Assembly: GCA_016191145.1 (NCBI GenBank)
Contig: JACPPD010000007.1
Coordinates: 91,158-155,157, forward strand
Origin: Ignavibacteria bacterium
Lineage (GTDB): Bacteria > Bacteroidota > Ignavibacteria > Kapaibacteriales > Kapaibacteriaceae
Direction: 5' to 3'
Length of the DNA stretch: 64,000 nt
How positions within the stretch are numbered: position 1 is the first letter of the stretch; every line of letters starts with the position of its first letter. Below, piece after piece: positions 2,528 through 57,379 of the stretch. The notes beneath the pieces are model-generated. The model had not been told where the DNA came from. It searched no databases and was given only the letters and a program-made list of their open reading frames with translations. Position numbers and translations under genes: made by a program.

Positions 2528-4078
2528 ATGGCAGAAGTGAAGGCCGAAGAAATTTCTGCAATACTTCGCAGGCAGCTTGCAGGGTTTGAACCGCAGACCG
2601 ATATCTCGGAAGTTGGCACCGTCCTGCAGGTTGGTGATGGTGTTGCCCGGGTATACGGACTTACGAAAGTAATGGTATCGGAACTCATCGAGTTTCCGAA
2701 TAACGTATTCGGAATGGTACTCAACCTCGAAGAGGACAGTGTTGGCGTTGTTCTATTTGGTGATGACTCACTTGTTAACGAAGGAGATCAGGCGCGTAGA
2801 ACTAGTCGTGTTGCTTCCGTTCCTGTTGGAGAGGCATTGATAGGCCGTGTGGTTAATCCACTGGGTTTGCCGCTCGATGGCAAGGGGCCGATTAAAACCG
2901 ATCACTACCTGCCTATTGAACGTAAAGCGCTCGGAGTTATCGACAGACAGCCCGTAACCGAGCCGCTGCAGACAGGAATCAAGGCTATCGATTCGTTGAT
3001 CCCCATCGGAAGGGGTCAGCGAGAACTGATCATTGGCGACCGTCAGACAGGTAAGACGGTTATTGCAGTAGATACAATTATCAATCAGCGTCATACCCAT
3101 ACCAGGGAAGCACAAGAGCGCGGCATCAAGCCGATGTATTGCGTATATGTTGCAATTGGACAGAAGGGCTCGACAGTTGCAAACGTTGTTGCAACTCTCG
3201 AAGAGTATGGCGCAATGGAATACACAACAGTTGTAAATGTTTCTGCATCCGATCCGGCTCCTCTTCAGTTTATCGCGCCATACTGCGGCTGCTCGATTGG
3301 GGAATATTTTCGCGACAGTGGCAGGCACGCCCTGGTTATCTACGACGATCTCTCAAAACAAGCGGCTGCCTACAGGCAGGTGTCGCTACTCCTGCGCCGT
3401 CCACCCGGACGCGAGGCATACCCCGGCGATGTATTCTACCTTCACAGCCGCCTTCTTGAACGCGCTGCCAAGCTTAACGATTCTTTGGGAGGGGGCTCGT
3501 TAACGGCTCTGCCGGTAATTGAAACTCAGGCTGGCGACGTAGCAGCATATATCCCGACGAATGTAATTTCTATTACTGACGGACAGATCTACCTTGAACC
3601 AAATCTTTTCAACGCAGGTATTCGCCCTGCATTGAATGTTGGGATTTCCGTTTCTCGCGTAGGCGGTAATGCCCAGATAAAGGCAATGAAGAAGGTGGCA
3701 GGACCGCTCAAACTAGAGCTTGCACAGTATAGAGCACTGGAAGCATTTGCAAAGTTTGGTTCAGACTTGGATAAGACAACACAACAACAACTGCGTCGGG
3801 GAGCACGGTTGATGGAGGTTATGAAGCAGCCTCAATACTCACCAGTTCCGGTCGATGAGCAAGTAGTGGTGATCTTTGCAGCTACCAACGGATACATGGA
3901 TGAATTACCGGTAGAAGCCATAAAGCGCTACGAAAACGAACTTCTCTCGCTTATGCACAGTACCCATGCCGATGTGTTGGATGCTATCTCCGTCGAGAAA
4001 GCCTTAACCGACTCAATAGTAGAGAATCTGAAGTCAATTATAAACACATTTACAGAACGCTTTACAGCGTCGCTGTAA
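2528..4078 (+). CDS. atpA: F0F1 ATP synthase subunit alpha
   Basis: 516 aa with P-loop GDRQTGKT and strong global similarity to alpha subunits ([45 protein letters not shown]). Confidence 0.95.
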
Positions 4079-4086
4079 TTCAATTC

Positions 4087-5052
4087 ATGCCAATGATTGT
4101 TCTGACGGGCGGCGCGGGTTTCATCGGCAGTTGCATGTTGGCAACCCTTAACGCATCGGGGTACACCGATGTGCTAATCGTAGACTCATTGCGTTCCGGT
4201 GACAAATGGAAGAATCTTGTTGGTCATTCCTTCCTCGACATTGTTAGCAAGGAGAACTTCCGCGAAATGATGATGACGGGTGTCGATGAAGGGATTGAGA
4301 CCCTGATTCATTTTGGCGCGTGTTCCACAACAACGGAAAGAGATGCAGATTATCTATACGACAACAACACGAGGTACTCGCAGGAAGTGGCTGAATTCGC
4401 ATTCCGTCAGGGTGCGCGTCTCATCTACGCGAGTTCGGCAGCAACGTATGGTGATGGCAGCAAGGGCTACAGCGATGATGAGCGGTTGCTACTCCCGCTA
4501 AATATGTATGGATACTCTAAATACTTGTTCGATGAATGGGTAAGAAGTAATGGATACGATGGGTCTTGTGTTGGTCTGAAGTTTTTTAACGTCTATGGTC
4601 CTAATGAATACCATAAAATAGATCAGGCAAGCATGATCTACAAAGCAGTGCAGCAGATTGCTCAAACTGGAAGTGTGAAGTTGTTTGCGTCGAACGATCC
4701 ACAGTATCCAGATGGCGGACAGATGAGAGATTTCATTTACGTTAAGGATGCCTGCAAGGTAGTTATGTGGCTAATGAAATCCCCGCAAATCAATGGTATT
4801 TTCAATTTCGGATCCGGCACGGCTCGCACTTGGAACGATGCTGCACGCGCAGTATTCGCTGCTATGGAGTTGGAACCGCATATTGAGTACATCGAAATGC
4901 CAAAAGAGCTAAAGCTGCAGTATCAAAACTTCACACAAGCCCAAATGTCTAAACTCAGGAATTATATTCCCACAATGTCATTCTCAACTCTCGAAGAAGG
5001 TGTTGCCGATTACGTAAAGAATCATCTTGTGCAATCATGGCAATATTATTGA
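4087..5052 (+). CDS. hldD: ADP-L-glycero-D-manno-heptose 6-epimerase
   Basis: 321 aa with N-terminal Rossmann motif TGGAGFIGS. Collinear similarity to E. coli HldD/RfaD along the full length (YASSAATYG, NMYGYSKYLFDE, FFNVYGPNE, FNFGSG). Confidence 0.85.
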   Translation: MPMIVLTGGAGFIGSCMLATLNASGYTDVLIVDSLRSGDKWKNLVGHSFLDIVSKENFREMMMTGVDEGIETLIHFGACSTTTERDADYLYDNNTRYSQEVAEFAFRQGARLIYASSAATYGDGSKGYSDDERLLLPLNMYGYSKYLFDEWVRSNGYDGSCVGLKFFNVYGPNEYHKIDQASMIYKAVQQIAQTGSVKLFASNDPQYPDGGQMRDFIYVKDACKVVMWLMKSPQINGIFNFGSGTARTWNDAARAVFAAMELEPHIEYIEMPKELKLQYQNFTQAQMSKLRNYIPTMSFSTLEEGVADYVKNHLVQSWQYY

Positions 5053-5063
5053 TCGGCTAATCC

Positions 5064-5948
5064 ATGGCTACACTACGTGAAACACGAACAAGGATCAGCT
5101 CTGTTCGAAACATTTCAAAGATCACACAGGCAATGCGAATGGTTGCTGCAGCCAAACTGCGGCGCGCAGAAGAAGCCATCAAGTCGGCGCGGCCATTTGC
5201 GCGGCAACTGGAAAAGATTTTGTTCAACATTGCAAAAGCCGAAACCGATTTCGTACACCCATTTCTCGAAAAGCGTGCAGCGGTAAATTCTGTTCTGCTG
5301 ATTGTTGTTTCCAGCGATCGGGGATTATGCGGAGCATTTAATGCAAATCTGATGAGGGTGGTTGGCACACGGAATGTACTGCTGAGAAAAGACAATCCAA
5401 ACGTAGACATATCTGTTGTTACCGTTGGCAAGCGCGCCATTAATTCAATGCGCCGAACTAAAGAAAAAATTCTTGCTGAATTTCCCGACGTATTCAACAA
5501 GCTTGATTATTCAGTTGCAGTTGAATTATCGCACATTGCCGTTAATGCATTTACTACCGGTCACGCAGATAGGATCGAAATCATTCACAACGAATTCGTT
5601 TCTATCATCAGGCAGGAAGTCAAGGTTCTTCAGCTTCTCCCGATCGAACCCGCCGTGGTGAAGGGCGAAACAACTAAGGAAGCCAACGTCGATTACATTT
5701 TTGAACCTACAAGAGCACTGCTGGATGCAATTCTGCCGCTGTATTTGAACGCTCAGGTCTGGCGCACATTGCTGGATTCCAACGCTGCAGAGCACGGAGC
5801 CCGGATGATGGCTATGGATAACGCCACAACGAATGCAAGAGATCTCATCAAGGCGCTGCAGCTCATGTATAACCGGGAACGCCAGGCAGCCATCACTAAA
5901 GAGATGCTGGAAATTGTTGGCGGAGCTGAAGCTCTTTCAAGCACGTAA
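5064..5948 (+). CDS. atpG: F0F1 ATP synthase subunit gamma
   Basis: 294 aa. N-terminus MATLRETRTRISSVRNISKITQAMRMVAAAKLRRAEE and C-terminus ITKEMLEIVGGAEAL are classic gamma-subunit signatures. Confidence 0.9.
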   Translation: MATLRETRTRISSVRNISKITQAMRMVAAAKLRRAEEAIKSARPFARQLEKILFNIAKAETDFVHPFLEKRAAVNSVLLIVVSSDRGLCGAFNANLMRVVGTRNVLLRKDNPNVDISVVTVGKRAINSMRRTKEKILAEFPDVFNKLDYSVAVELSHIAVNAFTTGHADRIEIIHNEFVSIIRQEVKVLQLLPIEPAVVKGETTKEANVDYIFEPTRALLDAILPLYLNAQVWRTLLDSNAAEHGARMMAMDNATTNARDLIKALQLMYNRERQAAITKEMLEIVGGAEALSST

Positions 5949-5954
5949 ATCTCA

Positions 5955-6488
5955 ATGCAGAGCCGACCGACATTTTTTTCGCTTCGGTCCCTGGCCCTCG
6001 CTGCTGCGATGGTAACTTTCTATACAATCCTGGTTTCCGTAGACTTCGGTGGGTACAATCCGTATGCTGAATCGTATAGGTCCCGCATTGGACTCTATGC
6101 AAGCAAACTTGATACTCTTGCACTGATCACGTCGTGGAACAAAAAGATGTTCCTTCGGCACCTTGCGAATTTCGAGATACCCAGGTACGTAGCCCAACAC
6201 ATCCAGCAGGGCGACACAGTACTCCTGCCCCCTTGGGAATATGCGGCCCAGTACATCGAGGTGGATCCAACGTGGACAGATCCGCGAGTGTTTACTTACA
6301 TGACGGGCTTTCAGCCAATTGTAGCCTTTAACGATTCCTTGCGGTGGAAGAGCGCTAACACGTACATTGTTTTGGAGGGGGCATCCATCTGGCTGGCACG
6401 AAGAGGAGACCGGACAAATATTGATTCGTTGCTCAATGAATATCGACGTCTGGCTGCAACGAATCCGAACAACGTTAAGTCGCTATGA
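5955..6488 (+). CDS. hypothetical protein with N-terminal signal/TM anchor
   Basis: 177-aa ORF with a hydrophobic N-terminus. No recognisable family. Overlaps the next gene by 4 bp, which suggests an operon. Confidence 0.5.
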   Translation: MQSRPTFFSLRSLALAAAMVTFYTILVSVDFGGYNPYAESYRSRIGLYASKLDTLALITSWNKKMFLRHLANFEIPRYVAQHIQQGDTVLLPPWEYAAQYIEVDPTWTDPRVFTYMTGFQPIVAFNDSLRWKSANTYIVLEGASIWLARRGDRTNIDSLLNEYRRLAATNPNNVKSL

Positions 6489-47053: not shown

Positions 47054-47160
47054 AAATGGTGTTCTACCCTCTGCCATTTGTTCATACCCTTAGGTATCCC
47101 GAAGTTCGTAGCCCTATGAGAGCCAGCTTACTAAAAAATCTATGTACTCCGAAGGAGAAG

Positions 47161-49395
47161 ATGCCTGTCACGTTTTTGCTCGGTGATGCAGGCATGGGCA
47201 AAACAACACTCCTGCGCGAAGTTGAAGTACACTTGAATGCGCATGGCGATGAGCGATGTGTTTTAGCTGATTGTTCTGCACCTGTTGCCGGTATCGATGT
47301 TGGTAGTGTCGAAGCGTTGCATCCATGGATTGCAGTGATGAAAGCGTTGGCAACAACCAACGACAAGTCTAAGACACAATCGCTTGTGACAGACCTTGCA
47401 ATGGCATGGATAAAATTCGTTCCAATTGTTGGCGACCTTGTAGAATCAACGGTGAGTACCGTTGGCATCGTCCGACGTCACAGGCAATCAACCACTGAAC
47501 AACCCACAAGTAAGGAGCATGTATTTCAACAATGCATTTCATTTTTTAATGCCGTTGGTGAAAAACAAAAACTTGTTATCATTATTGACGATGCACATTG
47601 GGCCGATAATTCTTCAGTCAACCTGCTATTTGCATTGGCGCGATCTGGCACTCCCAATATCAGATACATTGTAGCCTACAGACCATTCGACGTGGCAAGT
47701 ACACATGGCGGAGAAGAGCATCATCTTGCTCGCATCAATCGTGAACTCACACGTTATGAATTGTGCGAAAACATCGAAGTACCACCTTTGACCGATGAAG
47801 AGGTCCGTAGTCTGTGCGGCACAATTGCCGGCCATTCTGATGATGAAATCGTTCAGAAAGTAAAGAAATTTAGCGGCGGAAACCCTCTGCTCGCGTTGGG
47901 ATGGATGGAAGGGGGCAAGGTAGCCGCATCCGTCGAAGCAATCGTGGTGGAGCGCATTCGCAGATTGGACACCGATTTGCGCAGCTTGCTGATGCTTGCC
48001 GCTGCAGAGGGTGAGACATTCACTTCGCACGTTATACGCCAACTCTCCACGTATCAGCCAATGGCAATTGCATCAATGTTGCGCAGAGCCGAAGCTGAGC
48101 ATGGTCTGATAAGGGCTCTGGGCAAGATGCCTGTGTATTCAACGGAAACACCGGCGTATGTATTTAGCAACCAGGCTATTCACCGAGCTTTGGAGGCAAT
48201 GCTCGGAACCGAGGAGCGAGAACTTGCTCACGGTACGATTGCAGATATTTTGACTGATGAGAGATCCAGCCTCGGCATGTCGGATTCAGAGTGGATGGCT
48301 GTGAGTGTCCGGCTTGCTGTGCATTTGGAATTGTCTGACAGGCAGCAAGAATCGGCCGCGGTTTACATGGAAATTGCACAGCGGGCATGGCAGCTCTATG
48401 CAGAGCACGAGGCATTGACGGCAATCTCAAATGTGTATCGGTTACTAGGTTCAGTTGCATCGGCAATCAGCGCCGACAAAGAGATAAGGTTGAACGCTCT
48501 CGATCTTGAATCGCGTATCCATCAATTTGCCCACCGTATGTCCGAGGTAGAACATAGTACTGAAATGCTGAGAACGTTTGCTCTTGAATGTGGAAGCAGC
48601 AAGGCTGCAGTAAACGCTCTTGTCCGTCGGGCACAGATTGCAAACATGAATGGCAATCCCGAAGAAGTACACACCTATGCGATACAAGCGCTGGATGAAG
48701 CTACGCGAATAGCATACGTCGACGGAATGCGTGGCGCTACATCGATGTTGGGTATGTGGCACGAAGCCAATGGAAGACTCGATGATGCAGAAGCATGCTT
48801 TAGGGCGACGTTCGAGTACGCAGTTACTGAACAATCGGACAAATTCAAAGCAACATCGTTAGTAAACATTGGTAGAATCTTCACTCACAGAAGTATGTAT
48901 CAAGAAGCGTTAGAGTGTTTTAACAACGCTGTGGAAATGTTGGAGCGTGAACGGGATTGGGACGGCATGGCGAGAGCACTAAGTAACGTAGGGATTTGTC
49001 GGGTAGAACTCGGTTTGTTTCCAGAAGCGGCAGCGGCATACGAACGTGCGCTCGAACTAAACGAAAGAATTGGGAGCAGGATCGGCGCGTCGTCGATTCG
49101 AACAAATCTTGGTCAGTTGTTGCTTCGGCAAGACAAGGTAGAAGAATCGTTGGAGCAATTCGAAAAGAGCATCAACCTGAAACGGGAGCTCGCGGACCCT
49201 TATGGTTTGGCTATCGCACTCTATTCAAAGGGACTTGCACTCAGTGAAAGCGGCCGGTTTGAAGAGTCCTTTGAAATCCTGGAAGAGGCAATACAATCGG
49301 CTGAAGAGTCGGGGGAAATGTTAGTCATCAAGGAAGTCAACCGCATCACAGAGATTGTGCGCAGGGCATCTGCCGGGCGAAAGTCAGAACATTAA
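47161..49395 (+). CDS. STAND-type NTPase (AAA_16-like P-loop + TPR repeats), paralog 2
   Basis: AGGAG SD 6 nt upstream of MPVTFLLGDAGMGKTTLL (Walker A). Walker B VIIIDDAHWADNS and a C-terminal run of clear TPR units (NIGRIFTHRSMYQEALECFNNAVEM; SNVGICRVELGLFPEAAAAYERALEL; ...). No DNA-binding or effector domain is evident. Confidence 0.7.
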   Translation: MPVTFLLGDAGMGKTTLLREVEVHLNAHGDERCVLADCSAPVAGIDVGSVEALHPWIAVMKALATTNDKSKTQSLVTDLAMAWIKFVPIVGDLVESTVSTVGIVRRHRQSTTEQPTSKEHVFQQCISFFNAVGEKQKLVIIIDDAHWADNSSVNLLFALARSGTPNIRYIVAYRPFDVASTHGGEEHHLARINRELTRYELCENIEVPPLTDEEVRSLCGTIAGHSDDEIVQKVKKFSGGNPLLALGWMEGGKVAASVEAIVVERIRRLDTDLRSLLMLAAAEGETFTSHVIRQLSTYQPMAIASMLRRAEAEHGLIRALGKMPVYSTETPAYVFSNQAIHRALEAMLGTEERELAHGTIADILTDERSSLGMSDSEWMAVSVRLAVHLELSDRQQESAAVYMEIAQRAWQLYAEHEALTAISNVYRLLGSVASAISADKEIRLNALDLESRIHQFAHRMSEVEHSTEMLRTFALECGSSKAAVNALVRRAQIANMNGNPEEVHTYAIQALDEATRIAYVDGMRGATSMLGMWHEANGRLDDAEACFRATFEYAVTEQSDKFKATSLVNIGRIFTHRSMYQEALECFNNAVEMLERERDWDGMARALSNVGICRVELGLFPEAAAAYERALELNERIGSRIGASSIRTNLGQLLLRQDKVEESLEQFEKSINLKRELADPYGLAIALYSKGLALSESGRFEESFEILEEAIQSAEESGEMLVIKEVNRITEIVRRASAGRKSEH

Positions 49396-49422: not shown

Positions 49423-49911
49423 TTATAACAACCGACGTGCACCGATATAGCGCAAACTCCAGTACCGATCCGACATCTGAGTAATTATTACTCCGCTTGT
49501 TGTCGAAGAATGGATAAATGCGTTATCGCCAATAAATATTCCAACATGCGATACGCCCTTGCCAGATGTATTGAAAAACACAAGATCGCCAGGGGCGAGT
49601 GCTGATGGCTGGACTGCTTTGCCCGACGAAAAGAGCTCAGACGAAGTTCTGGGCACCATTATCTGTGCTGTCGCAAAGCAATAAAAAACAAATCCCGAAC
49701 AATCGAAACAATCTGGTGTTTGGCCATTTAAGCAATAGGGCGATCCCTTTAGCTGGGCAGCAGTTTGTAGGACTTTGTCGGTCACGTCATTGCCTGTTTT
49801 CCGAATAGAAGTAGTGGAAGAACAAGCGGCAATAACACAACCAATTACAATGGAAACTGCAACTGCTTTTGCCAACTGAATATCACCTCTTAGCTGTTTG
49901 CGTATCATCAT
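49423..49911 (-). CDS. NlpC/P60 (C40) family peptidoglycan endopeptidase lipoprotein
   Basis: Lipobox VIAACSS, catalytic Cys context FDCSGFVFYC and a downstream His (SHVGIFIG). Confidence 0.75.
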   Translation of the reverse strand: MMIRKQLRGDIQLAKAVAVSIVIGCVIAACSSTTSIRKTGNDVTDKVLQTAAQLKGSPYCLNGQTPDCFDCSGFVFYCFATAQIMVPRTSSELFSSGKAVQPSALAPGDLVFFNTSGKGVSHVGIFIGDNAFIHSSTTSGVIITQMSDRYWSLRYIGARRLL

Positions 49912-50827
49912 TCTTTTGCTCTGGGTTCATGAGAGAAAGAATAATCGATGTGGCGAGAATAAATGCTATCGAGCACAGTGTCCACTCGATAGGAATTGGA
50001 AAATGGTCGTGAACGATCATCTTGACGCCGATCAACGATAGTATGACGCTCAGACCATATTTGAGGTAGTGGAATAAACCCATGACGCCGGCGATAACAA
50101 AGAACAGCGACCTGAGCCCCATAACAGCAAAAATATTTGATGTAAATACGACGAACGTGTCTTTTGTAATAGCAAAGATTGCTGGGATAGAATCTATTGC
50201 AAATACAAGATCGGTGATTTCAACAACAATCAGTACAACCATTAGCGGAGTGAAATATCGTAAGCCATCGATAACAACGATAAAATGATCCTGACGATAG
50301 TCCTTGGTAAGCCTGAGTTTTCTTTGAATAAATCTCACAATGCTATTGTCGCCAATATCCTCTTCGTCTTGCGTTACAAATGCCATACGGATACCGGTGA
50401 ATACAAGAAAGGCGCCGAACACGTAGAATACCCAGTGTATGTTAGCCAGCAGCATGGCGCCAAATGCGATGAGACTTCCACGCATGACGATTGCGCCAAG
50501 AATACCCCAGAACAACACTTTGTGATGGTACTGAGGCGCAACCTTGAAATACCTAAGGATGAGAATGATAACAAAGATGTTATCTACGGACAGTGATTGC
50601 TCTAAGAGATACCCGGCAAAAAATTCCTTACCAGCAACTGGCCCCCTGGTGTAATACACAAAGGCGTTAAATGCAAGCGCAAGCACAACCCAAAACGTTG
50701 TCCACCCAATCGCTTCGCTCAGCTTTGCTACGTGCGGTGTGCGGTTGAACACACCCAGGTCCATCGCCAGCAGGAGCGCTACGAGTGTGAGGAAACCTAT
50801 GTAAAGCCAGATATCGGGTATGGCCAT
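49883..50827 (-). CDS. TerC-family integral membrane protein
   Basis: Polytopic, with TerC signatures (DNIFVIILI, acidic residues in TM helices). An ATG start at 50827 (MAIPDIW...) is preferred over the track GTG at 50872 because the latter lies only 5 nt from polA. Confidence 0.75.
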   Translation of the reverse strand: MAIPDIWLYIGFLTLVALLLAMDLGVFNRTPHVAKLSEAIGWTTFWVVLALAFNAFVYYTRGPVAGKEFFAGYLLEQSLSVDNIFVIILILRYFKVAPQYHHKVLFWGILGAIVMRGSLIAFGAMLLANIHWVFYVFGAFLVFTGIRMAFVTQDEEDIGDNSIVRFIQRKLRLTKDYRQDHFIVVIDGLRYFTPLMVVLIVVEITDLVFAIDSIPAIFAITKDTFVVFTSNIFAVMGLRSLFFVIAGVMGLFHYLKYGLSVILSLIGVKMIVHDHFPIPIEWTLCSIAFILATSIILSLMNPEQKNDDTQTAKR

Positions 50828-50844
50828 AAGCGCTGCTGCAGAAG

Positions 50845-53715
50845 ATGCAAATGTACAATCCGGTATATTCACGGCTCATGGGACCGCTAATATTAGTCGA
50901 CGGGTTTTCACTCGTATTTCGAGCATATCATGCGCTTCGAAACAGCGGCATGGAATCTGCAAACGGCGAACCGACATTTGCAGTTTTTGCTTTTGCCAAT
51001 ATTCTAACGTCGTTGCTCGACAAGCATCACCCGGATGCAATTGCCGTGGTGTTCGACACGGCTACGCCCACGTTCCGTCACGAATTGTACGACCAGTACA
51101 AGGCTAACCGCGATGCCTTCCCGGAAGACCTTGTGCCGCAATTGGCTCGTATCAAGCAACTCATTTCCCTTATGGGGCTTGAGCAAGTTGAAATGCCGGG
51201 ATATGAGGCCGATGATATCATCGGCACCATTGCAGCCCGTGAATCGCAGGATGGACATGAGATTCTATGCCTAACGTCCGATAAAGACTACTTTCAACTT
51301 GTGACGGATAAGGTAAAAGTCCTCCGCCCGGGAAAGGACATAAACACGTATGAGACCTACGATCCCGACCTGGTAAAGGAGCGGTTTGGAGTGCCGCCCG
51401 GCAAGGTGATCGACGTCCTTGCCCTCATGGGAGATTCCGTCGATAATGTTCCAGGTGTGAAAGGAGTTGGAGAAAAGACGGCAAAACCCCTCGTAGAGCA
51501 GTTCGGATCCATCGAGAATATTTATGTAAACATAGATAATATTGAAAAGGTTTCGTTGCGAAAAAAACTGGAAGAGTCAAAAGACCTTGCATTCTTATCG
51601 AAGAAACTGGTGACAATTCATAGGGATGTTCCAATCAACGCAAAGCGTGTTATGCTCGAGCGAAAACCTATGGACTACGCAGCCATTGATGAACTGTGTG
51701 CCGAGCTTGGATTTACAACCCTTAGGAACAAATTCAGAAAGTATGCCGAATCTGCAGGCGTTGAGTTAGAAACCATTTTAAATGACTCGAAGGGGGCAGG
51801 TAGCGGAGAATCTGATGGATTGAGTGAGACGCAGATTTCACGTCAAGCCGATAAGCTAAAAACAATTAGCGATGTTAACCATACTTATGTTCTGGTTGAT
51901 ACACCCGGAGGGCTCGACGAGTTGGTAAACGAATTGAAGAATGTTAAGGAACTAAGTGTAGACCTCGAGACGACTGGATTAGATGCAATGCAATGCAGTA
52001 TTGTCGGCATCTCTCTATGTGCAAAGGAAGGCCACGCGTTTTACATTGATGTCGACGATCCCATAGAAACACCCACTGGCGCTTTGTTTACATCGGGAAG
52101 TGAGCGCCATGGTCTCGATGTGCAGCTTGTGATTGAATCTCTCAAGCCACTGCTGCACAATCAAAGCATTAGCAAGATTGGACAGAACCTGAAGTTCGAT
52201 GCCCTGATTCTTAAGCGTTACGGCATAGATGTGCAGCCCATAGCGTTCGACACTATGCTTGCAAGTTTTATCCTTGATCCAGACAGGCATCATAGCCTCG
52301 ATGCTCTTGCCGAGCGCTGGCTGAGTTACAAGACCGTTCCCATCACTGATTTGATTGGAGAAAAACGTGGGCAGCAAAAATCAATGAAGGATGTAGATCT
52401 GCAATTGATCACTGAATATGCCGGCGAAGATTCTGATGTTGCATTGAAATTGAAGCACATGATGTACGCAGTGCTAAAAAGGGAAAAGCTCCTTGAACTT
52501 GCAGAAACCGTTGAGTTTCCATTGGAACGTGTTCTTGTGACGATGGAATTCAATGGCGTGAGAATTGACTCCAATGCGCTTGGAGACCTTGCAGATTTTA
52601 TGAGAAAGGAGGCAGCTCGGCTCGAAAAGGAAGTGTGGAAGGAAGCCGGCGAAGAGTTCACCATTGGATCGCCAAAACAGCTTGCCGAAGTGTTGTTCGA
52701 AAAAATGATGCTACCCGCTGGCAGAAAAACCAAGACCGGTTATTCGACGGATTCGGGTGTTCTTTCCGAACTGGCAGAATCGTTCCCGATTGCACAAATG
52801 GTGCTGGATTACAGACAGGTTGAAAAGCTTCGATCGACCTACGTAGAAGCCTTGCCTCGGCTCATCAATCCACGCACAGGACGCGTTCACACAACCTACA
52901 ACCAGACTGTTGCTGCTACAGGTCGGTTGTCATCGACAGATCCAAATCTTCAAAATATTCCTATCCGAACAGAGCTTGGGCAACGGATACGAAAGGCATT
53001 CGTAGCGCAGGCAAGTGATGCCGTAATAATGTCTGCCGACTACTCTCAAATTGAACTGAGAATTATGGCTGGAATATCTCAGGATGAAAATCTTATCGCT
53101 GCGTTTAATGATGGCGCAGACATCCACAAGTCGACTGCTGCGATTTTGTTTGGTGTTTCCACGGACAAGGTAACAAGCGAACAACGCCGTATTGCCAAGA
53201 CTACTAACTTCGGAATCATGTATGGTCAGGGCGCCTTTGGATTATCTCAGCAACTTGGAATTTCACGATCCGAAGGACAACAAATAATTGCGAATTACTT
53301 TGAAAAATATCCCGGCATCAAGCGCTACATGGACGAGACTGTACGGCTGACGCGAGAGCGCGGTTTTGCAACAACACTGCTCGGACGTCGCCGATATTTT
53401 CCACAAATCAGCAGCAGCAATCGTCAGCTTCAGGCGGCCGCCGAACGCGCTGCCGTGAACACTCCCATTCAGGGTACTGCTGCCGACATGATGAAAAAGG
53501 CGATGATCAGCATTCATACACGTATGGAAAAGGAAGGGTTTAATTCGTTAATGATGCTTCAGGTGCATGATGAACTTGTATTCGAGGCAAAGAAATCGGA
53601 AGTGAAGGAATTGCAAAAGTTAGTTACAGATGAAATGGAGCATGCGCTACCTCTTAAAGGCGTACCGATTGTGGTAGAAACGGGAGTTGGCGAGTCGTGG
53701 TACGAAGCTCATTGA
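50845..53715 (+). CDS. polA: DNA polymerase I
   Basis: 5'-3' exonuclease N-terminus (PLILVDGFSLVFRAYHAL), a 3'-5' exonuclease-like middle, and polymerase motifs A (DYSQIELRIMA), B (RRIAKTTNFGIMYG) and C (LQVHDELVFE). A start at 50878 is also possible. Confidence 0.9.
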   Translation: MQMYNPVYSRLMGPLILVDGFSLVFRAYHALRNSGMESANGEPTFAVFAFANILTSLLDKHHPDAIAVVFDTATPTFRHELYDQYKANRDAFPEDLVPQLARIKQLISLMGLEQVEMPGYEADDIIGTIAARESQDGHEILCLTSDKDYFQLVTDKVKVLRPGKDINTYETYDPDLVKERFGVPPGKVIDVLALMGDSVDNVPGVKGVGEKTAKPLVEQFGSIENIYVNIDNIEKVSLRKKLEESKDLAFLSKKLVTIHRDVPINAKRVMLERKPMDYAAIDELCAELGFTTLRNKFRKYAESAGVELETILNDSKGAGSGESDGLSETQISRQADKLKTISDVNHTYVLVDTPGGLDELVNELKNVKELSVDLETTGLDAMQCSIVGISLCAKEGHAFYIDVDDPIETPTGALFTSGSERHGLDVQLVIESLKPLLHNQSISKIGQNLKFDALILKRYGIDVQPIAFDTMLASFILDPDRHHSLDALAERWLSYKTVPITDLIGEKRGQQKSMKDVDLQLITEYAGEDSDVALKLKHMMYAVLKREKLLELAETVEFPLERVLVTMEFNGVRIDSNALGDLADFMRKEAARLEKEVWKEAGEEFTIGSPKQLAEVLFEKMMLPAGRKTKTGYSTDSGVLSELAESFPIAQMVLDYRQVEKLRSTYVEALPRLINPRTGRVHTTYNQTVAATGRLSSTDPNLQNIPIRTELGQRIRKAFVAQASDAVIMSADYSQIELRIMAGISQDENLIAAFNDGADIHKSTAAILFGVSTDKVTSEQRRIAKTTNFGIMYGQGAFGLSQQLGISRSEGQQIIANYFEKYPGIKRYMDETVRLTRERGFATTLLGRRRYFPQISSSNRQLQAAAERAAVNTPIQGTAADMMKKAMISIHTRMEKEGFNSLMMLQVHDELVFEAKKSEVKELQKLVTDEMEHALPLKGVPIVVETGVGESWYEAH

Positions 53716-53730
53716 GCTAATTTTGTGTAA

Positions 53731-55218
53731 ATGTCGTTTTTAGTTGCCCTTTTGCTCGGAGTCATCCAGGGTCTTACAGAATTTATTCCGATATCAAGTA
53801 CTGCACATCTTACGATTGCAGGAAGTCTTCTTGGGACGATCGACCCAAATAATCCTGAATCGTGGACTGCATTTATTGCTACCATTCAACTAGGTACGTT
53901 AGTTGCCGTAACTGTTTTTTTTCGACGAGATATCATTTCGATGTCGAAACACTTTTTCGTTGAAAATTTTGGCTCAGGCAGATTGCCTGTCAAGGACCAG
54001 AGTCGCGATTCGCGCATGACTTGGTTTGTTATTGCCGGCACTGTTCCGGTAGTTGCAGTAGGCCTTGCCTTCAAGGATTTAATTGAAGGATCGCTCACTA
54101 AGGATTTACACATCATTGCGTCGAGTCTGATTGTTGTTGCCATTCTTCTTTGGATAGCCGAGCGTAAGGCAACGTTTACGAGGACGTCAGCTCAATTGAA
54201 TTTTCTTGATGCAATGATTATCGGATTTGCACAAGTGCTAGCTCTCATTCCGGGCTCGTCGAGAAGCGGAACAACCATTATGGCTGGACTTTTCAGGGGG
54301 CTTACACGCGAACATGCAGCCAGGTTTTCGTTTTTATTGTCCATACCCGCAATTTTGGGTTCAGGCATTCTTGAGTTTGCGGGGGAAGTTTCACATTTGA
54401 ATTGGGAAGAGTCGGGAGCTGCATTGTTAATTGCAACACTTGCATCGATGATAAGCGGTTATTGGTCGATAGCATTTCTGCTGCGTTACCTGCGAACGCG
54501 AAACATGAACGCTTTCATTATTTATCGAATTGCGCTTGGCGCCGCGCTGTTACTTACGGCTTGCTCTTCCGATACAGGGCAGCGCGAGGGAACAGACATT
54601 GCACGAGAGATGAGTCCGCCATATGCTACGGTTGATTCAGCAGCAAATAATTTTGCGCAAACGCCGGCGGATACTTCCGTGATAACGGATGTGGTTGATC
54701 TTCGCACTTCTGCAGGTACCATAACGCTTGGATTGTACGGCAAGGATGCCCCGCTTACTGTGAAAAATTTTCTCGGACTGGTAAGAAAGAAATTTTACGA
54801 TGGAATTCTGTTCCACCGCGTTGCAAAGAATTTTGTGATACAGGTTGGCGATCCTAAAACTCGCGATGCAAATGCCAGAGCCGAGTGGGGCACAGGCGGT
54901 GAGACTGCAGATGGGAAGCCCCTTCCCGAAGAACTCGATGCATCGGCGCCATCGGCAAAAGCGGGGTATCAATTTGGAGTTGTGGCTATGGCAAGAACCG
55001 CGGAACCGAATTCTGGTACGAGTCAGTTTTTTATTTGTCTTGAAAAAGCTGCAGCATTGCCGCACCAATACACGATATTCGGCCGTGTGATTGATGGTTT
55101 AAAAGTTGTTTCTCAAATTGGTAATGTCGAGTTTGAGAAAACGACTCCCGACGCAATAGAGGGGATTCCAAGGAAAGCTGTGGTAATTAAAAGCATTCGC
55201 CTACGAAAACTTAACTGA
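53731..55218 (+). CDS. uppP: undecaprenyl-diphosphate phosphatase (UppP/BacA) fused in-frame to a cyclophilin-type peptidyl-prolyl isomerase
   Basis: Residues 1-~280 are a BacA-type polytopic protein (FIPISSTAHL...PGSSRSGTT...FIIYRIALGAALLL). They continue without a stop through a lipobox-like LLTAC and linker into a cyclophilin domain (FHRVAKNFVIQVGDP...SQFFICL). Confidence 0.7.
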   Translation: MSFLVALLLGVIQGLTEFIPISSTAHLTIAGSLLGTIDPNNPESWTAFIATIQLGTLVAVTVFFRRDIISMSKHFFVENFGSGRLPVKDQSRDSRMTWFVIAGTVPVVAVGLAFKDLIEGSLTKDLHIIASSLIVVAILLWIAERKATFTRTSAQLNFLDAMIIGFAQVLALIPGSSRSGTTIMAGLFRGLTREHAARFSFLLSIPAILGSGILEFAGEVSHLNWEESGAALLIATLASMISGYWSIAFLLRYLRTRNMNAFIIYRIALGAALLLTACSSDTGQREGTDIAREMSPPYATVDSAANNFAQTPADTSVITDVVDLRTSAGTITLGLYGKDAPLTVKNFLGLVRKKFYDGILFHRVAKNFVIQVGDPKTRDANARAEWGTGGETADGKPLPEELDASAPSAKAGYQFGVVAMARTAEPNSGTSQFFICLEKAAALPHQYTIFGRVIDGLKVVSQIGNVEFEKTTPDAIEGIPRKAVVIKSIRLRKLN

Positions 55219-55245: not shown

Positions 55246-55794
55246 ATGATTGGAACACTTTTTTCAACGCTTGTCCTAATTGGAGCATTAATGTCGGACA
55301 CACAACCTCAGTACATCATATCGGTCCGACAGGGCAACCACGATATGGGAAAAATTCGAATTCAACTTTGGCCATCAGTTGCACCCAAGCACTGTGCCTT
55401 CTTTGAAGCCCGTGTTTCGGAGGGATGGTATAACGGCTCGGCATTTCACCGCATTGTTCCCGGATTTGTAATTCAGGGTGGAGATCCAAATTCGAAGAAT
55501 CAGCCTAAGGAAACGTGGGGTCAGGGTGGCTGGCCGGAAAAGGTACCAGCAGAATTCAACGAAAAGCACCATGTAAAGGGTGTATTGTCAGCAGCCCGGA
55601 CTAACGATCCAAATAGTTTCGGCGGACAGTTCTTTATTTGCCTGGGCGACGTCAGCCATCTGAATGGGAAGTACACTGCATTTGGAGAAGTTGTGTCGGG
55701 CATGGAAGTCGTTGATGCAATAGCGGCAGTTCCAGTGGATGCCGACACGCGCCCGTTGGAAAAAATCGAAATGACGATTGAGAAGGTTAAGTAA
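55246..55794 (+). CDS. peptidyl-prolyl cis-trans isomerase, cyclophilin type (probably periplasmic)
   Basis: N-terminal signal-like segment MIGTLFSTLVLIGALMS, then a cyclophilin core (FHRIVPGFVIQGGDP...GGQFFICLGD). Confidence 0.85.
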   Translation: MIGTLFSTLVLIGALMSDTQPQYIISVRQGNHDMGKIRIQLWPSVAPKHCAFFEARVSEGWYNGSAFHRIVPGFVIQGGDPNSKNQPKETWGQGGWPEKVPAEFNEKHHVKGVLSAARTNDPNSFGGQFFICLGDVSHLNGKYTAFGEVVSGMEVVDAIAAVPVDADTRPLEKIEMTIEKVK

Positions 55795-55813
55795 TGGAAC
55801 TGATAACCACGCT

Positions 55814-57379
55814 ATGATAACTAAATTTAGTTATGTGTTCTTCGCTGTTATCGTAATAGCGTTAGGTATCGGTTTGAATGCAGCATCGGCTCAAGAAGCC
55901 GATACGCAGCAGGTTGACTCCATGTACCTGCCGGTTAATCTGGGACCGTCGGTGAATGGACCGTACGATGATATTCTGCCGGTGATTTCACCGGACGGGC
56001 AGACGCTGTATTTCTGCAGAAGTCAGGCGCCGGAAAACATCGGTGGGGGCAGACAGGATATTTGGGTAAGCGAGCTGCTGCCAGATGGTTCGTGGAGTGT
56101 GGCGCGAAACATTGGTGTACCGCTGAATAATCGCGACAACAACTACATGTGTTCGATTACTCCGGATGGGAACACGGCTGTTGTTGCCGATGCGTATAGC
56201 GACCCCAAAAACACTCAGCGAAGTGTTGCAATGTCGTTTCGCACAAAGGGAGGATGGTCTATCCCTCGCCCCCTAACCATTAAAAATTATTACAATAAGA
56301 ATCGCTTCCATGAATTCTCATTGGCCAACGACGGGAAAACGCTGCTGATGGCAATTGAACGAAACGATTCAAAGGGTGGTAAGGACCTGTATGTATCGTT
56401 CAGACAGCCAGACAGCACCTGGAGCGAGCCGCAGAACTTAGGCAACGTTGTTAATACCATTGGACACGAAGCAACTCCATTTATCGCGTCTGATAATTCC
56501 TCGTTATACTTTTCATCAGACGGGCATCGCGGCTATGGAGGCTTTGATGTATTTGTAACCAGAAGGCTCGATTCAACGTGGACTGTGTGGAGCCAGCCCG
56601 AAAATCTTGGTCCGCTCATCAACACTGCCCGCTGGGACATCTACTACACCATTCCAGCGTCTGGTGATTACGCCTATTATGTTTCTTTCTCAAATAGCTT
56701 TGGGTTGGGTGATATTTTTAAGATCAAACTTCCCGAAACTGCACGTCCGCGTCCTGTTGTACTTGTTAAGGGGCGAGTACTGAACAAGAAGACGTTAGAA
56801 CCAATCGAAGCAGACATTGCCTACGAGGAATTACCATCGGGTAAGGAATTGGGGATTGCACGTTCCACTCCGGAAACTGGCGCCTATAAAATTGTGCTCC
56901 CAGCCGGTATGAAATATGGCTTCCGGGCATCTGCGCCTGGATTCATTTCCGTAAACGAAAATCTAGATCTCTCACAGATTGCGGAATACACGGAAATCAC
57001 TCGAGACTTATACCTTGTTCCAATAGAAGAGGGAAGCGTAGCACGCATCAACAATATCTTTTTTGATTATGATAAGTGGAATTTGCGTCCGGAGTCTTTT
57101 CCCGAATTGGATCGGGTTGCACAGATGCTCGCGGCAAACCCAACGATGATTGTAGAACTCGCCGGCCACACCGATAGTGTTGCATCAGACCAGTACAATC
57201 TGCGATTGTCGGACAAGCGTGCGAATTCCGTTGTTCAGTATCTATTTACGACCCATAAAATCAGCCTTAATCGAATCAAGCCTAAGGGTTATGGCGAAAG
57301 TCGGCCTGTTGCCAGTAATGCCACACCGGAGGGGCGTCAGGAGAATCGTCGCGTCGAAATGGTGATTCTTAAGAAGTAG
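55814..57379 (+). CDS. OmpA-family protein with TolB-like (PD40/WD40-like) beta-propeller and OmpA C-terminal peptidoglycan-binding domain
   Basis: Signal peptide MITKFSYVFFAVIVIALGIGLNAASAQ. PD40-like repeats (PDGQTLYFC, PDGNTAVV, NDGKTLLM, SDNSSLYFSS). C-terminal OmpA domain (NIFFDYDKWNLRP...LAGHTDSVASDQYNLRLSDKRANSVVQYL...RRVEMVI). Confidence 0.8.
   Translation: MITKFSYVFFAVIVIALGIGLNAASAQEADTQQVDSMYLPVNLGPSVNGPYDDILPVISPDGQTLYFCRSQAPENIGGGRQDIWVSELLPDGSWSVARNIGVPLNNRDNNYMCSITPDGNTAVVADAYSDPKNTQRSVAMSFRTKGGWSIPRPLTIKNYYNKNRFHEFSLANDGKTLLMAIERNDSKGGKDLYVSFRQPDSTWSEPQNLGNVVNTIGHEATPFIASDNSSLYFSSDGHRGYGGFDVFVTRRLDSTWTVWSQPENLGPLINTARWDIYYTIPASGDYAYYVSFSNSFGLGDIFKIKLPETARPRPVVLVKGRVLNKKTLEPIEADIAYEELPSGKELGIARSTPETGAYKIVLPAGMKYGFRASAPGFISVNENLDLSQIAEYTEITRDLYLVPIEEGSVARINNIFFDYDKWNLRPESFPELDRVAQMLAANPTMIVELAGHTDSVASDQYNLRLSDKRANSVVQYLFTTHKISLNRIKPKGYGESRPVASNATPEGRQENRRVEMVILKK

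Follow-up and report, generated by a model that had tools for sequence, protein, structure and literature searches.

In Bradyrhizobium japonicum, the cytochrome b-c1 precursor FbcH is reportedly cut at an internal signal sequence, according to Thony-Meyer et al., and internalised prolipoprotein signal sequences are said to have been modified and processed in the work of Hayashi et al. in 1985 (J Biol Chem 260:5753). Here we describe a natural gene in which a signal of the lipoprotein type appears to lie at the end of a complete polytopic enzyme. The gene is located in a 64,000-nucleotide stretch of DNA from an Ignavibacteria bacterium of the family Kapaibacteriaceae (assembly GCA_016191145.1, contig JACPPD010000007.1, positions 91,158 to 155,157 of the forward strand; hereafter, the window). 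In one open reading frame (ORF), it encodes an undecaprenyl-pyrophosphate phosphatase (UppP, also called BacA) followed by a cyclophilin-type peptidyl-prolyl isomerase (PPIase), with a lipobox at the junction. We infer lipidation and cleavage at the lipobox cysteine, Cys278, by the predicted action of Lgt and Lsp, and we consider it probable that one precursor gives rise to two proteins in this way.

The membrane part of this protein can be compared directly with a well-studied enzyme. Two crystal-structure papers on E. coli BacA (5OON, 6CB2) place both the N- and the C-terminus in the periplasm and Arg261, which corresponds to R266 in the fusion, halfway along the last helix, H10, at mid-membrane level. 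This helix is integral to BacA and packed within it, and Arg261 locks the two domains of the enzyme together. Manat et al. 2015 (PMC4641660) attached beta-lactamase to Phe273 of BacA via a 12-residue linker and found that the hybrid conferred ampicillin resistance, remained fully active as a phosphatase on undecaprenyl pyrophosphate (C55-PP) and complemented a temperature-sensitive mutant. Like the natural fusion, this BacA-Phe273::beta-lactamase exports a globular domain from the last residue of BacA, while, unlike the fusion, it was engineered, contains no lipobox and is uncleaved (PMC4641660). The hybrid is an experimental counterpart of the gene described here, which is laid out as follows.

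53731–55218, plus strand: uppP(bacA)::cyclophilin fusion, one ORF of 495 residues with an ATG start, predicted to encode the precursor.
53731–54561, plus strand: UppP/BacA part, residues 1–277, assigned by Pfam match and invariant catalytic motifs.
54484–54561, plus strand: basic cytoplasmic loop RYLRTRN (residues 252–258) and last BacA helix H10 (residues ~259–277), oriented N-in, C-out.
54553–54564, plus strand: internal lipobox L275-T276-A277-C278, with the predicted Lgt site at Cys278 and the predicted Lsp cut between A277 and C278.
54565–54687, plus strand: hypervariable, disordered tether, residues 279–319, assigned by the predicted local distance difference test (pLDDT) and the alignment.
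54688–55203, plus strand: cyclophilin-type PPIase domain, residues 320–491, assigned by Pfam, structure alignments and AlphaFold2 (AF2).

In the ORF listing of the window, no stop codon separates the UppP and cyclophilin parts of 53731–55218, and the Pfam search matched both domains in the 495-residue ORF, which confirms the preliminary description of a BacA-type phosphatase in frame with a complete cyclophilin. The BacA profile (PF02673) covers residues 6–271 (E 9e-79; profile positions 1–256 of 257) and scores 265 bits where the cut-off is 33.4, as expected of an UppP/BacA family member. The score of the UppP part with TIGR00753 is just under the cut-off (214.3 vs 217.5), and all NF0013xx equivalog models also score it under their strict cut-offs; judged by these profiles, it belongs to the UppP/BacA family but falls outside any single curated equivalog. 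The (E/Q)xxxE motif, the SS-T-x-H loop, the PGxSRSG motif and the arginine in the middle of H10 are all present, as Q13-x3-E17, S22/S23 with H26, P174-G-x-S-R178-S-G, and R266. In the alignment of 74 fusion sequences described below, Q13, E17, P20, S22, S23, T24, H26, P174, G175, S177, R178, S179, G180 and R266 are invariant, and the invariant residues align with E17, E21, S26, S27, H30, R174 and R261 of E. coli BacA.

The cyclophilin domain (Pro_isomerase, PF00160) matches over residues 322–488 (E 6.5e-42; 143.9 bits against a cut-off of 21.7). Its catalytic core comprises H362-R363, Q371, M420-A421 and Q432-F433-F434, with F368 within nFviQ; R363, Q371 and Q432 are invariant in all 74 fusions, and F433 and F434 are conserved in at least 90%. 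These residues correspond to R55, F60, Q63, Q111 and F113 of human CypA, and the equivalent of His126 is Tyr, as in E. coli PpiA and PpiB. The domain can be aligned to the structures of PPIL2, PPIL1 and E. coli PpiA/PpiB, and 90 PDB cyclophilins match it at E < 1e-10, while its score lies below the NCBIfam cyclophilin equivalog cut-offs (89 bits vs 308). By these residues, both catalytic cores are intact.

We searched for homologues of the fusion among 5.8 billion proteins, with clusters drawn from JGI, ENA, Logan and NCBI assemblies. The identical protein, P0001, is encoded on a 212-kb contig of an NCBI Ignavibacteria metagenome-assembled genome, and 73 further full-length clusters, 486–503 residues long and 53–88% identical, all contain PF02673 together with PF00160. 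Thus the architecture of the 495-residue product is conserved among its orthologues, with both domains in 74 clusters. Among GTDB species representatives, three also carry the fused ORF: Candidatus Kapaibacterium ZLKRG19, Ignavibacteria RE-18aug17-124 and UBA2333. In an exhaustive HMMER scan of 1.84 billion representatives at 50% identity, both domains occurred together only in P0001 and one fragment, and no second family with both domains was found; therefore, the UppP-cyclophilin architecture is confined to one family within Ignavibacteria/Kapabacteria. The public names of these proteins are inconsistent, in that P0001 is called only 'peptidylprolyl isomerase' and its orthologues, including P0009, P0021, P0023 and others, only 'undecaprenyl-diphosphatase UppP'. 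The annotation pipeline PGAP labels the fusions with one of the two functions, never both, and leaves the lipobox unnamed as well.

At the junction, the protein reads ...RYLRTRN-M259-NAFIIYRIALGAALL-L275-T-A-C278-SSD, with Cys278 encoded by TGC at 54562–54564. In the fusion alignment, Cys278 is invariant (74/74). The residue before it (−1) is Gly in 40 fusions, Ala in 27 and Ser in 7; position −2 is mostly Thr (48), otherwise Val (12), Ala (7) or Ser (5), and position −3 is Leu in 41, Phe in 17 and Val in 11. After the cysteine, position +1 is limited to T, S, Q or A, and +2 is Pro in 48 of the 74. From +3 onward, some 40 residues of variable length contain no conserved column except a loose PP motif, and the distance between the cysteine and the FHR motif of the cyclophilin ranges from 78 to 95 residues. 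We also applied a PROSITE-type lipoprotein pattern, {DERK}(6)-[LIVMFWSTAG](2)-[LIVMFYSTAGCQ]-[AGS]-C (the PS00013/PS51257 rule). It matched at the junction in 74/74 fusions and once elsewhere in the same proteins, and among stand-alone UppPs it matched in 0 of 39; other BacA proteins with C-terminal extensions lack a lipobox at their junction. The lipobox that the preliminary description had suspected at this site is therefore borne out by both the pattern and the cysteine. In addition, the segment has the make-up of a lipoprotein signal, namely basic residues followed by a hydrophobic N-in, C-out stretch that ends in the lipobox. From its conservation, the junction lipobox is under strong purifying selection.

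The spacing between Arg266 in the middle of H10 and the cysteine is 12 residues in 72 of the 74 fusions. In the other two, P0006 and P0052 (...YRIALGIIVLLFLTSC and ...YRIIIGLVILGVLAGC), it is 14 residues, and P0006 adjoins an unfused clade in the BacA tree. The longer spacing of these two proteins may mark independent fusion events.

The gene order polA-uppP-cyp-cyp2-PD40/OmpA is common to fused and unfused relatives. On L001, a 181-kb JGI contig, uppP encodes 284 residues, ending in ...YRIVLGGILLSLIAAGILQP before the stop codon, and is followed with a 4-nt overlap by a gene for a 233-residue cyclophilin (4852–5553). The N-terminus of this cyclophilin, MRIRFCSVALVVGVLALVGC followed by TTENNK, is a textbook lipoprotein signal peptide. 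The corresponding cyclophilin of L003 (4938–5654) has the lipobox ...FLLISC followed by EQS. From the lipobox on, the two proteins are 42–47% identical to the fusion and share its layout of tether and cyclophilin. They differ in having their own start codon and a classical signal peptide with a basic n-region, an h-region and a lipobox; in the fusion, the basic loop and H10 of UppP stand in the place of this signal peptide. By these likenesses, the stand-alone cyclophilins are orthologous to the fusion cyclophilin, and the part of the fusion downstream of the lipobox therefore has predicted lipoproteins as its syntenic, unfused orthologues. Further afield in Ignavibacteriota, Ignavibacteriaceae and Melioribacteraceae included, the gene that starts 3–130 nt after uppP encodes an exported cyclophilin that is in most cases a lipoprotein, and the closest stand-alone cyclophilin representatives are mostly lipoproteins as judged by the lipobox. 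The pairing of uppP with an exported cyclophilin across Ignavibacteriota points to co-regulated lipid-carrier recycling and periplasmic folding.

The fusion probably originated from this tightly linked pair of uppP and lipoprotein cyclophilin genes. In a small deletion, some 10 residues at the UppP tail would have been lost together with the stop codon and with the n- and h-regions of the cyclophilin signal peptide, and everything from the lipobox onward would have been kept. Compared with its unfused relatives, the fusion looks like the product of such a deletion, because the lipobox was retained and the unfused orthologues are lipoproteins. When the BacA part was placed together with 13 outgroups in neighbour-joining (NJ) trees, at least three transitions between the fused and unfused states were required in 200/200 bootstraps. 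A single origin of the fusion is not supported by this simple method. The trees suggest that the two states have been repeatedly interconverted, or swapped by recombination, and that the lipobox was retained each time.

The structural comparison bears on what would be left of UppP after a cut at the lipobox. The UppP part aligns with E. coli BacA (5oon/6cb2) over residues 2–274 (E 8e-30), with the catalytic motifs and the mid-H10 arginine kept. The natural C-terminus of E. coli BacA falls at position 278 of the fusion, where the fusion chain instead runs on into the lipobox, the tether and the PPIase. Cleavage would leave an intact enzyme, because E. coli BacA itself stops at the equivalent of position 278. 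The AF2 model, which was computed with the 74-sequence alignment, has a mean pLDDT of 88.7 and a predicted template modelling (pTM) score of 0.59. In this model, the last BacA helix spans residues 260–279, pLDDT falls below 50 at 282–310, and the beta-rich cyclophilin follows at 320–491 with high pLDDT. The pTM is consistent with two domains that are placed independently of each other. We also considered a cyclophilin docked on UppP; this pTM and the disordered linker, in an output that contains no inter-domain information, give no evidence of a fixed interface.

With the architecture, its conservation, the selected lipobox and the lipoprotein homology established as above, and the BacA C-terminus known from the literature to be periplasmic, we propose the following course of events. 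The precursor would enter the inner membrane as a BacA fold, and H10 would run from the cytoplasmic RYLRTRN loop to the periplasmic face and take the downstream chain across the membrane as a signal peptide does. The RYLRTRN loop and H10 would then do the work that the n- and h-regions do in a type II signal peptide. At the outer leaflet, Lgt would place diacylglycerol on Cys278, Lsp (signal peptidase II) would cut between Ala277 and Cys278, and N-acyltransferase may act after Lsp. The first product would be UppP 1–277, a complete undecaprenyl-pyrophosphate phosphatase that falls short of E. coli BacA by a single residue. The second would be a lipid-anchored periplasmic cyclophilin, residues 278–495, on a flexible tether of ~40 residues, with a layout identical to that of the mature protein of the separate gene in unfused relatives.

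The lipobox type of this genome can be judged from an upstream lipoprotein gene, which serves as an internal control:

49423–49911, minus strand: NlpC/P60 lipoprotein gene (Pfam NLPC_P60), with the N-terminal signal peptide ...VIAAC followed by SSTTS.

Its box, VIAAC followed by SS, is nearly the same as that of the fusion. From such canonical lipoprotein signal peptides, lgt and lsp are predicted to be present in the genome. As for the enzymes themselves, a review reports cleavage by LspA of short peptides that bear the lipid on an internal cysteine, so that local context is enough for Lsp. Together with the processing of internalised signals reported by Hayashi et al. 1985, this supports the feasibility of the proposed mechanism. 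Two other roles of the junction were considered. Cleavage by signal peptidase I (SPI, type I) is unlikely, in that position −3 is L, F or V rather than a small residue and the invariant feature is the cysteine. A disulfide between Cys278 and Cys436, the other invariant cysteine, is likewise unlikely, in that Cys436 belongs to the buried strand QFFIC, which is typical of cyclophilins; it is also disfavoured by the unfused orthologues, in which the lipobox cysteine is part of a classical signal peptide.

Several points weigh against lipidation and cleavage. To our knowledge, all known Lgt/Lsp substrates carry their lipobox no more than ~35 residues from the N-terminus. The lipobox cysteine of the fusion is residue 278, behind a 10-helix fold, instead of the usual ~15–35 residues from the N-terminus, and it fits the N-terminal position rule only if the count begins at residue 252, in the basic loop, or at the unconserved Met259. 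The packing of H10 within BacA could hinder Lgt and Lsp sterically unless processing precedes folding. In addition, conservation of the lipobox alone cannot separate lipidation with cleavage from lipidation without it, and neither lgt nor lsp was seen in the Pfam annotation of 42–64 kb of the window.

The main alternative is a permanent, uncleaved bifunctional protein in which the cyclophilin stays tethered to UppP by the 40-residue linker, whether or not Cys278 is lipidated. A folding catalyst would then be held beside lipid-carrier recycling and the peptidoglycan-synthesis machinery. The single ORF with both domains intact and the two independent domains with a flexible linker in the AF2 model agree with such a protein, as does the finding that the artificial BacA-beta-lactamase fusion is stable, exported and active (PMC4641660); H10 shielded inside the BacA fold could also block Lsp. 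A permanent tether, however, leaves unexplained why the cysteine is kept in 74/74 fusions, with a small residue at −1 and a hydrophobic one at −3, while the next 40 residues drift. Moreover, the unfused orthologue is a lipoprotein of the cleaved type that is made apart from UppP, so that attachment is dispensable in sister lineages, and at least three switches of state are easier to understand if fused and unfused genes yield identical end products. We therefore consider a permanent tether unlikely. This also divides a suggestion of the preliminary description, which had taken the last BacA helix as the anchor of a periplasmic PPIase: the role of the helix as an export and anchoring signal and the periplasmic location of the PPIase agree with our analysis, while the helix as a permanent anchor does not account for the invariant lipobox.

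The same description had proposed an internal start at MNAF that would yield a separate lipoprotein cyclophilin. Initiation at Met259 (ATG at 54505) would give the prolipoprotein MNAFIIYRIALGAALLLTAC... beside the full-length product. The ATG lies 19 codons before the cysteine, which gives a 20-residue peptide of signal-peptide length, and of three further fused loci that were inspected, two likewise have ATG at this position and one has TTG. Across the 74 fusions, however, position 259 is Leu in 38, Met in 26, Val in 5, Thr in 4 and Ile in 1, and stand-alone UppPs vary just as much there. Residue 259 is therefore an ordinary BacA position that is not selected as a start, and we rejected Met259 initiation as a conserved mechanism. 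The resulting peptide would also lack a basic n-region, its only charge being Arg266 inside the helix, and no Shine-Dalgarno-like motif was found upstream in the four fused loci examined, which is weak evidence in this lineage. Furthermore, the full-length fusion would still be translated from the upstream start, and its lipobox would still need explaining. An internal start is thus highly improbable.

A missed stop codon or frameshift that merged two neighbouring genes during sequencing or assembly has a negligible probability and was rejected. A single indel could in principle merge the two genes of L001-type relatives across their 4-nt overlap, but 74 clusters, whose projects and assemblers are independent of one another, keep the same fused ORF at 53–100% identity, as do the three GTDB genomes, and the junction, which lacks ~10 residues of the UppP tail and ~16 of the signal peptide and has a fixed Arg+12 spacing, does not correspond to a simple frameshift. 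A stop codon between the two parts is absent from all 74 fusion clusters, while some relatives do keep two genes; these two-gene relatives are a true evolutionary difference and not a sign of an error in the window sequence. The reading that fits best, lipidation and cleavage by Lgt and Lsp, was not among the two that the preliminary description had offered.

Downstream of the fusion, the plus strand continues with two further envelope genes.

55246–55794, plus strand: second cyclophilin (cyp2), 182 residues, PF00160 with E 1.5e-45.
55778–57379, plus strand: PD40/OmpA protein, mechanically called ORF with a TTG start at 55778 that overlaps the end of cyp2.

The start of cyp2 lies exactly 27 nt after the stop codon of the fusion, in an operon-like array, as had been described before. 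Its hydrophobic N-terminus, MIGTLFSTLVLIGAL, is plausibly the signal peptide that had been assigned to it. The orthologues of cyp2, which is syntenic in fused and unfused relatives, carry clear SPI-type or lipobox signals. In L006, cyp2 is duplicated in tandem (4529–5104 and 5157–5732), a lipobox being present in one copy and a signal of the SPI type in the other, and in L020 (Kapaibacteriota, 3899–6011), three cyclophilin paralogues stand in a row after uppP. The array of exported cyclophilins beside uppP thus grows and shrinks between lineages. The PD40/OmpA protein, which contains TolB-like PD40 repeats and a Pal-like OmpA domain, is syntenic with uppP-cyp whether these are fused or not. 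Its likelier start, judged from the sequence, is an in-frame ATG at 55814, which follows the stop codon of cyp2 by 19 nt and gives MITKFSYVFFAVIVIALGIGLNAASAQ followed by EAD, a clean SPI signal peptide.

On the upstream side, two further genes were annotated.

49883–50872, minus strand: TerC-family membrane protein, divergent from polA together with the NlpC/P60 gene.
47056–49395, plus strand: STAND-type NTPase (AAA_16/NB-ARC-like) of 779 residues with C-terminal TPR repeats, between Hsp20/DnaK and the NlpC/P60 gene.

The order NlpC/P60-TerC-polA-uppP is also found in L001, and an envelope-related neighbourhood is thereby conserved beyond the uppP-cyp pair. The 779-residue STAND/TPR protein is possibly a signalling or defence-type ATPase; it, DnaK and Hsp20 also belong to the surroundings of the fusion. 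On the plus strand, polA, the fusion, cyp2, PD40/OmpA and ThrRS are co-directional, with NhaA, a nucleotidyl transferase and PhoU farther downstream. No mobile-element signatures were present in the annotated surroundings (42–64 kb), which are an ordinary chromosomal housekeeping context.

If the fusion is cleaved as we propose, Lgt and Lsp need no N-terminal signal peptide in nature. They would be able to work on a multi-pass membrane protein, folded or still folding, at its C-terminal helix, and a structural helix of a multi-pass enzyme would also serve as a signal for export and lipidation. Signal peptidase II would then be used in bacteria to split a polyprotein, for which we found no natural precedent in the searchable literature, and predictors that inspect only N-termini would miss a class of lipoprotein substrates. 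If it is uncleaved, it is the first natural example we found in which UppP has an enzyme domain tethered to its periplasmic C-terminus. The fusion is a clean, well-conserved natural experiment on the question of whether Lgt and Lsp can process a lipobox that ends a polytopic enzyme.

In the searchable literature, we found neither a natural internal lipobox or type II polyprotein nor an UppP-cyclophilin fusion or an account of a PPIase lipoprotein in Ignavibacteria. Each domain taken by itself is ordinary for its family. The fusion cyclophilin shares with the periplasmic PpiA and the cytoplasmic PpiB of E. coli the fold and the bacterial-type catalytic core FHR...Q...AMAR...SQFFI...Y-x-x-FG; it is unlike PpiA in its setting, as PpiA is a soluble, SPI-exported protein that is not a lipoprotein and is unlinked to uppP. 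What is unusual is where the lipobox stands, namely at residue 278, behind an enzyme of 10 helices. The nearest concept is a polyprotein with an internal signal peptide, such as FbcH, alongside the engineered internalised prolipoprotein signals of Hayashi et al. 1985. We lean towards seeing the fusion as a natural type II signal-peptidase polyprotein, in which the 'signal peptide' of the lipoprotein is an entire essential UppP of 277 residues that would be functional after cleavage. As proposed here, it resembles FbcH in that a polytopic membrane protein is followed by an export signal within the chain and by a periplasmic domain, and one gene gives two proteins when a signal peptidase cuts the chain. 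It differs in that FbcH has a dedicated internal signal peptide with type I-like cleavage, whereas the fusion would use the last structural helix of the enzyme itself together with a type II lipobox motif.

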